The notes beneath the pieces are model-generated. The model searched no databases. It was not told the DNA's origin and saw nothing but the letters and a program-made list of their open reading frames with translations. 64,000 nucleotides of DNA from Escherichia coli (GTDB lineage: Bacteria > Pseudomonadota > Gammaproteobacteria > Enterobacterales > Enterobacteriaceae), in NCBI RefSeq assembly GCF_003334405.1, contig NZ_QOWM01000001.1; one strand, written 5' to 3'. Shown here in pieces: positions 53,137 to 53,465 of the stretch. A program made the position numbers and the translations under genes. The stretch's first letter is position 1. Every line of letters begins with the position of its first letter.

Positions 53137-53465
53137 GTGACAGTATGGCCTTTATGTACTCACTTTGTTACCGGTAGCTGGATCATCACTACCGTGCTGC
53201 AAATGGTGGTGAACAGCATCAATTGTGGAATGAATGTTGCCGAAGCGACCAATGCGCCTCGTTTCCACTATCAGTGGTTGCCGGACGAGCTGCGTGTTGA
53301 AAAGGGTTTAGTCCGGATACGCTCAAGCTGCTGGATGCAAAAGGTCAGAAAGTGGCGCTGAATGAGGCGATGGGCAGCACGCAAAGCATTATGGTTGGGT
53401 CGGATGGTGAGTTGTACGGCGCATCCGACTCGCGCTTGGTGGATGATTTAACGGCGGGGTATTAA
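53137..53465 (+). pseudogene. ggt: 3' relic of gamma-glutamyltranspeptidase (ggt) with frameshift
   Basis: IITTVLQMVVNSI...NVAEATNAPRFHYQWLPDELRVEKG then, after a frameshift, ...QKVALNEAMGSTQSIMVGSDGELYGASDSRLVDDLTAGY*; no upstream ggt coding sequence. Confidence 0.75.

Follow-up and report, generated by a model that had tools for sequence, protein, structure and literature searches.

A truncated ggt fragment in the cobU island of Escherichia coli as a probable fossil of an ancestral ggt-phosphotriesterase locus

How does the 3' end of ggt, the gene for gamma-glutamyltranspeptidase (GGT), come to lie between a dead insertion sequence and a phosphotriesterase operon, ~1.5 Mb from the native ggt locus of E. 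coli? The window analysed here is a stretch of 64 kb of E. coli chromosome that runs through the colanic-acid and O-antigen clusters, the his operon, yeeZ to yeeA, tmaR (yeeX), yoeF, a variable island, cobUST and ldtA. A sequence-only reading of the window had placed an orphan ggt tail at 53137-53465, directly at the end of an ISL3 pseudogene, and had proposed that an ISL3 insertion plus a deletion destroyed a second ggt copy that once sat convergent to the operon. Our analysis leads to a somewhat different answer. With a probability of about two in three, the fragment is a synteny fossil, the trimmed edge of a block that came from an E. coli-like ancestral ggt locus and was moved by IS activity into PAI-cobU. 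The features on which the argument depends are as follows.

51382-53143, + strand: degenerate ISEc38-like (ISL3-family) IS, from its inverted repeats, its identity to ISEc38 and the PGAP label 'ISL3 family transposase, internal stop'
53144-53166, no strand: filler of 23 nt (TATGGCCTTTATGTACTCACTTT), from the IS end to the start of the relic
53167-53465, + strand: ggt relic, from blastn and tblastn against K-12 ggt and a PGAP pseudogene label
53471-53497, + strand: GC-rich, terminator-like hairpin in the ggt/PTE spacer, from a terminator scan and alignments
53505-54539, - strand: phosphotriesterase-family (PF02126, PTE) gene, last of the operon and convergent with the relic, from ORF and PGAP
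54542-55507, - strand: DMT (YdcZ-type) transporter gene, a pseudogene in the window, from ORFs and PGAP
55564-56322, - strand: GATase1-like (PF07090) gene, from ORF and PGAP
56336-57550, - strand: DeoR-HTH/PfkB kinase fusion gene, first of the operon, from ORF and PGAP
57551-57645, - strand: upstream (promoter) region of the operon, 95 nt, from the limit of a blastn HSP
57655-57817, - strand: IS66-family end fragment (GTAAGCG... terminus at ~57659), PGAP label 'IS66 family transposase, frameshifted, incomplete'

The fragment is derived from ggt. K-12 ggt gave one blastn match in the window, ggt nt 1449-1743 against 53172-53465 (92.2% identity, E 1e-120), and K-12 GGT matched in tblastn over residues 477-580 only, spread across two frames. 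Nothing else in the 64-kb window scored better than E 0.85 in that search, so that no further ggt-like sequence was found in it, upstream or elsewhere. Two lesions interrupt the fragment. The first is a 1-nt deletion within a run of A at 53300-53303 (GAAAAAGGG to GAAAAGGG), which breaks the reading frame, and the second is an in-frame deletion of 12 nt at 53178/53179, between two CGGTAGCC direct repeats, which removes PGGS. When the 12-nt deletion is allowed for, the homology to ggt extends back to GTT (Val478) at 53167, and it runs to the TAA stop codon at 53463-53465. The relic therefore consists of 299 nt, codons 478-580 and the stop codon of an Escherichia-type gamma-glutamyltranspeptidase gene. 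In these respects the sequence-only reading was right: the segment aligns to chromosomal ggt, it is truncated next to a dead ISL3 element, it carries a frameshift and a short internal deletion, and it has no upstream ggt sequence. Its right-hand bound also stands, and its start has to be moved from 53137 to 53167; position 53137 is the GTG of a spurious 74-aa ORF (53137-53361) that starts within the IS inverted repeat.

What remains of the gene is far from a complete proenzyme of ~580 aa with signal peptide, large subunit and small subunit. The catalytic nucleophile and autoprocessing site of E. coli GGT, Thr391, is missing, since by alignment the first codon of the relic is 478, well past that residue. 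K-12 ggt (b3447), to which the relic is so similar over the last 295 nt, is by comparison complete and functional. ORFs called on relic alleles still carry PF01019. The relic is thus an ordinary non-functional pseudogene fragment, and it is already in public annotation, where PGAP/RefSeq labels it 'gamma-glutamyltransferase; frameshifted; incomplete; missing N-terminus'.

The neighbouring IS has both marks of its family, terminal inverted repeats and an ISL3 transposase, the latter broken in the window. The repeats, at 51382-51424 and 53101-53143, are imperfect (43 nt, 81% complementary), and the left inverted repeat of ISEc38 reads CTGTCAACGACGG... The transposase is split into ORFs 51478-52221, 52182-52853 and 52932-53093, and in sister strains a 459-aa product carries PF01610 (DDE_Tnp_ISL3). 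Plasmid ISEc38 matches the element at 95% identity over positions 2-1761 of the query 51382-53143, and independent plasmid copies of ISEc38 match up to window positions 53127-53142. A simple insertion by an ISL3-family element is flanked by an 8-bp target-site duplication. There is no such duplication here (left flank CTTCACAT, right flank TATGGCCT), and the junction therefore did not come from a simple insertion but from a rearrangement at the IS end. Nor is the relic flush with the element, as had been thought, since it starts 23 nt after the IS end (53142/53143). The first 20 nt of the intervening filler had no match at up to four mismatches in the K-12, Citrobacter or Salmonella ggt loci, and the filler is identical across all relic-bearing strains sampled. 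We considered that it might itself be ggt sequence, aligned without the 12-nt deletion, and rejected this at 5/20 matches; the alignment with the deletion (GTTACCGGTAGC) gave 12/12.

One genome per species was scanned with the PTE protein, and the same four-gene operon (DeoR/PfkB, GATase1-like, DMT, PTE) was found in Salmonella, Citrobacter and enterics further removed. By tblastn, S. diarizonae and three Citrobacter species have a ggt ORF directly downstream of PTE and convergent with it. This ggt is full-length (580 aa) in the three Citrobacter loci, where it is followed by yhhA and ugpQ, and runs off the end of the fetched sequence in S. diarizonae. The gene order in S. enterica and S. bongori is gntR, yhhW, yhhX, (yhhY), operon, ggt, yhhA, ugpQ. 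The earlier suggestion that ggt was once convergent to the PTE operon is thus borne out by intact ggt genes lying tail-to-tail with the operon in Citrobacter, S. enterica and S. bongori. The Salmonella/Citrobacter locus, which is bounded by yhhY on the operon side and by yhhA-ugpQ beyond ggt, and the window agree in the four genes, in their order and in their convergence with ggt across a spacer that carries a CCCGG...CCGGG hairpin, which also stands 3' of the ggt stop codon in Citrobacter and Salmonella. However, their ggt, unlike the relic, is intact at 580 aa, single-copy, in its native chromosomal position and without IS elements. Furthermore, the likeness is unbroken along the block: window 53172-57645 aligns with the Citrobacter and S. 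diarizonae loci in a single continuous blastn HSP of ~76% nt identity, from the relic through the spacer and the operon to 95 nt upstream of it, and 57645 is the far edge of homology to the Salmonella/Citrobacter ggt locus. In S. bongori there is ~1.7 kb of extra sequence between PTE and ggt (8036-9718 of the fetched locus), compared with a ~50-nt spacer in S. enterica and Citrobacter; in one locus it holds three small ORFs, with no Pfam match.

The native E. coli locus looks different. K-12 and Citrobacter align collinearly as far as the stop codon of yhhY and again from that of ggt, K-12 having 3.5 kb of yhhZ-yrhA-yrhD-yrhB in between, and in all 5,426 complete E. coli genomes it is at the ggt stop codon that the native locus starts to match the Citrobacter query. 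The four-gene operon has therefore been lost from the yhhY-ggt slot in every E. coli examined. A ggt convergent with the PTE operon is therefore the ancestral state, and what the window holds is a copy of this block (4.5 kb, 53172-57645) displaced to a site ~1.5 Mb from the native ggt locus. The relic has the PTE operon as its neighbour, whereas native ggt has yrhB, or yhhY directly in some strains, and the relic resembles native E. coli ggt exactly as far as the TAA stop codon, the hairpin spacer beyond it being unlike the sequence downstream of the native gene. The native slot is itself polymorphic in E. coli. It holds yhhZ (an Hcp-type effector)-yrhA-yrhD-yrhB in some strains, only a 60-nt spacer with a hairpin in CFSAN061771, and the same spacer interrupted by ISEc13 in DCE7, and the 3' ends of native ggt are up to ~5% different among slot types.

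The affinities of the relic were examined with four sampled native E. coli alleles and with sites polarised by six outgroup sequences. Citrobacter ggt matches the relic at 82.5% identity, against the 92.2% found with K-12. In a neighbour-joining tree, the relics and the native E. coli alleles formed one clade in 200/200 bootstraps, within which the relics were monophyletic in 200/200 and the natives in 152/200. At six synonymous sites the relic and the outgroups differ from all four native alleles, and at 19 further sites, polymorphic among the native alleles, the relic shares one allele at each. A reading of the 92% identity as deep between-species divergence within Escherichia was dropped, as only those six synonymous sites stand against a native diversity of up to ~5%. 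This comparison of sequences places the donor ggt at the base of E. coli allele diversity or just outside it. The operon gives no sign of another Escherichia donor: a scan of genome contigs and a protein search found no PTE match between the E. coli type (>=98%) and the Salmonella/Citrobacter type (85-88% aa identity to the PTE of the window), and none of the representatives of other Escherichia species carried the PTE gene. One PTE protein match at 91%, a candidate for an intermediate donor, proved to come from a truncated allele whose island surroundings were the usual ones. PTE-family homologs at 43-64% aa identity are widespread in Actinobacteria (Georgenia, Actinotignum, Brachybacterium, Saccharopolyspora, Streptomyces, Pseudonocardia), which is unusually high for such distant phyla.

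The mode of change since that separation can be read from the same sites. The relic lineage has nine fixed private substitutions, seven nonsynonymous and two synonymous and mostly C>T, together with the two deletions; the replacements are R>W, D>N, Y>C, K>N, P>S, P>S and S>L. A nonsynonymous share of 7/9 compares with a random expectation of 0.77, and it differs from the native lineage, where two changes are nonsynonymous and 23 synonymous (Fisher p = 2e-4). The relic thus has the two marks of pseudogene decay, substitutions that are random with respect to codons, on small counts, and different disabling lesions among strains. This pattern suggests that the relic carries no trace of selection since it separated from native ggt, as far as nine fixed changes can indicate.

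The relic is common in E. coli. The 401-nt region made up of the IS end, the relic and the spacer is present in 2,529 of the 5,426 complete genomes (~47%), at 98.3-100% identity, and its carriers include the B2 strain 536, an O26 strain and other unrelated strains. Its private substitutions and its spread over unrelated strains indicate that the relic is old. Both the 12-nt deletion and the frameshift were present, as in the window, in all six complete-genome alleles sampled. Other lesions vary: 536, the O26 strain, AZ153 and AGR4587 have TAG instead of TGG at 53179-53181, inside ORF 53137-53361, the EC261 relic has lost one extra base, and the TW10690 relic is truncated further by IS66. The RefSeq/PGAP pseudogenes ECP_RS24990 (strain 536) and CXX37_RS00985 (strain 720632), which lie in PAI-cobU, are the same feature as the window relic, with the same ISL3 junction, 12-nt deletion, frameshift, spacer and PTE neighbour. 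They differ from it at the level of the allele only, the window having H>Y and E>D in addition. In all ten distinct contexts of the exact PTE protein, the ISL3 element and the relic were beside it. A protein search with the repaired relic peptide returned short fragments only and no full-length donor GGT. The one relic allele seen without the frameshift is on Logan contig ERR10299219_1819 (3544-3807), where three native-type sites fall within 17 nt; it may have arisen by gene conversion over a short tract of native ggt, or it may be a chimera of short-read assembly, and it was not relied on in the analysis.

The island that carries the block occupies the cobU-adjacent position, between yeeX (tmaR)/yoeF and cobUST on a map against K-12, which is where PAI-cobU is found and where K-12 has the CP4-44 element. 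The relic of strain 536 (2088500-2088783) falls within the published coordinates of PAI-536-cobU, 2075300-2116007 (PMC7545054). The Hma and Fbp iron-uptake cargo that is listed for the PAI-cobU of ExPEC is absent from the window, and the flanks of the block hold few long ORFs (at least 150 aa): none between 49420 and 51478, and one of 159 aa between 57550 and 59601. The window island is a reduced version of PAI-cobU that is joined to CP4-44-type sequence at ~51133-51140. The block of the window is 99.06% identical to that of strain 536, about equal to the 99.26% of the adjacent cobUST region.

Several details of the island edges are recorded here as observations. Window 48000-51140 is K-12 sequence at 98.9% (yoeF, yeeW and the last ~130 nt of cbtA), and at 51133-51140 this K-12-like CP4-44 right end meets the 3' part of a zinc-ribbon (DUF7828) gene, a gene that other strains have ahead of the ISL3 element. 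An overlap of 8 nt between the two matches at this point suggests that a microhomology deletion took out most of the left part of the island. At ~59100-59600, upstream of cobU (59601), PGAP annotation of sister strains indicates an IS4-family fragment and the 3' remnant of a cobalamin-biosynthesis gene; K-12 has IS5H within this stretch, and the window, which does not, joins the IS5H-flanking K-12 sequences at 59207-59210. In the strain of the window, inverted IS66-family fragments bracket the region of the ISL3 element, relic and operon: the fragment at 57655-57817 has an inverted copy, 88% identical, at 50276-50437, which is K-12 yoeD. We rejected a composite IS66 transposon made of these two fragments, as the left one belongs to the CP4-44 right end and is missing from the 41 kb fetched around the 536 relic. 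Finally, the DMT gene has an internal stop at 54899-54901 in the window, giving ORFs of 202 and 87 aa, and is intact (966 nt) in strains 536, EC261 and AGR4587; the operon is therefore decaying in the strain of the window.

These results can be joined in a simple model. An IS-mediated rearrangement would have lifted or trimmed the block from an E. coli-like ggt locus, with one breakpoint in ggt at about codon 477. The island would then have carried the block, with its ggt piece a pseudogene throughout its separate history. The relic would have no present role, and at most the spacer hairpin (53471-53497) may still mark the end of the operon. The arrangement is like that of other IS-bounded gene remnants, whether left by IS-adjacent deletion or by IS-mediated capture, in that a truncated gene stands at an IS end without a target duplication and the operon side of the block, too, is bordered by an IS remnant, its limit at 57645 being ~10-14 nt from the IS66-family terminus (57655-57659). 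It differs from such remnants generally in the 23-nt filler, and both IS are themselves dead, so that the event can be reconstructed only indirectly. A cut at or before capture is favoured over a cut made in the island after a whole ggt had arrived, because no fuller copy is found, the substitution pattern is neutral and IS ends lie at both edges of the block. Several points weigh against too firm a statement of this model. The 23-nt filler matches nothing in ggt. The operon is only ~76% nt identical to Salmonella/Citrobacter, below ggt at ~84%, yet the HSP is continuous; a more distant source for the operon part would still be conceivable. The missing target duplication bears directly on the alternative proposed by the sequence-only reading.

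In that alternative, a complete and functional second ggt stood in the island, ISL3 inserted, and an IS-adjacent deletion took the 5' 1.4 kb in place. The IS, 23 nt from the relic and without a target-site duplication, sits as it would after such a deletion, which accounts for the missing duplication equally well, and ggt is the natural neighbour of the PTE operon. Nevertheless, we consider in-place destruction unlikely. A search of the 5,426 complete E. coli genomes for a full ggt beside PTE found it in none of them (0/5,426), and the 532 nt of ggt immediately upstream of the relic portion, located at 5,433 places in 5,425 genomes, proved to be single-copy, with no second copy in any of the complete genomes. 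The substitutions (7 nonsynonymous to 2 synonymous) show no synonymous excess that would mark a functional period, although with nine fixed changes a short one as a second copy would still be compatible with the counts. An IS end is also found ~10-14 nt from the far edge of the block, which points to trimming or capture of a block and not to damage inside a locus that was otherwise intact. Thus, the parts of the earlier proposal that hold are the adjacency of ggt and the PTE operon and the involvement of an IS with a rearrangement at its end; the second copy in place is not supported, and the ggt of the relatives is a single native gene. A functional in-situ second ggt is neither needed nor evidenced, and would be the less likely course.

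A further question is whether the ancestral ggt-PTE arrangement persists in some living E. coli, the island relic being a copy of it. A pattern search of metagenomes for an undeleted ggt followed by the island-type spacer returned two contigs that, if genuine, would show just this: OOBN01004140.1 has ugpQ, yhhA, full ggt and 69 nt of island spacer, and OERT01002702.1 has a full ggt that continues into the spacer and the final 63 codons of PTE, at ~99% identity to the window. However, the switch from native to island sequence falls exactly within the 24-29 nt that are common to both loci at the stop codon, both contigs end 69-237 nt from the join, where OERT01002702.1 has G-type errors, and the join is seen in 0/5,426 complete genomes. 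From the orientations, if a join of that polarity came from real recombination, it would mark a deletion between direct repeats 1.5 Mb apart. Both contigs are very probably assembly chimeras, and we regard a surviving ancestral arrangement as improbable.

A recent intragenomic duplication or gene conversion of the strain's own ggt 3' end, unrelated to the PTE operon, would explain why the relic groups with E. coli ggt alleles and has many states in common with them at the 19 native-polymorphic sites, but it is highly improbable, since native homology ends at the stop codon and the relic continues unbroken through the spacer into the PTE operon, as in Salmonella/Citrobacter, and since its nine fixed private substitutions are common to 536, O26 and unrelated strains. 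Least credible of all is that the fragment, for all its persistence in ~47% of complete E. coli genomes, is retained because it does something itself, as the source of a small protein (ORF 53137-53361) or of a regulatory RNA, given substitutions that are random with respect to codons, the premature TAG in that ORF in four strains, the additional losses in EC261 and TW10690, and the absence of any promoter-like site in window 53000-53700.

In itself the relic carries little weight, as a dead fragment whose pseudogene status was already flagged publicly; a literature search on ggt, phosphotriesterase and pseudogene in Escherichia coli found no papers. One practical consequence concerns the identical stretches that the relic and native ggt share, which measure ~24-29 nt at the stop codon, with longer ones inside the fragment. 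Short reads are probably joined into chimeric contigs at such stretches, and care is needed in assemblies and in ggt-based typing of this region.

In summary, the fossil reading gives the relic its interest, as the relic then marks the PTE operon of the cobU island as coming from the ancestral ggt locus of an E. coli-like genome and not from a distant donor. The wider picture, in which we place about even confidence, is that a core enterobacterial operon, deleted at yhhY-ggt in all E. coli, survives in about half of them only as an IS-bounded copy in PAI-cobU that was captured near the base of E. coli diversification, with the ggt tail serving as a neutral clock that records ~3% of fixed decay before the relic alleles diverged. 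The relic would thus document how a once-core operon turned into island cargo.
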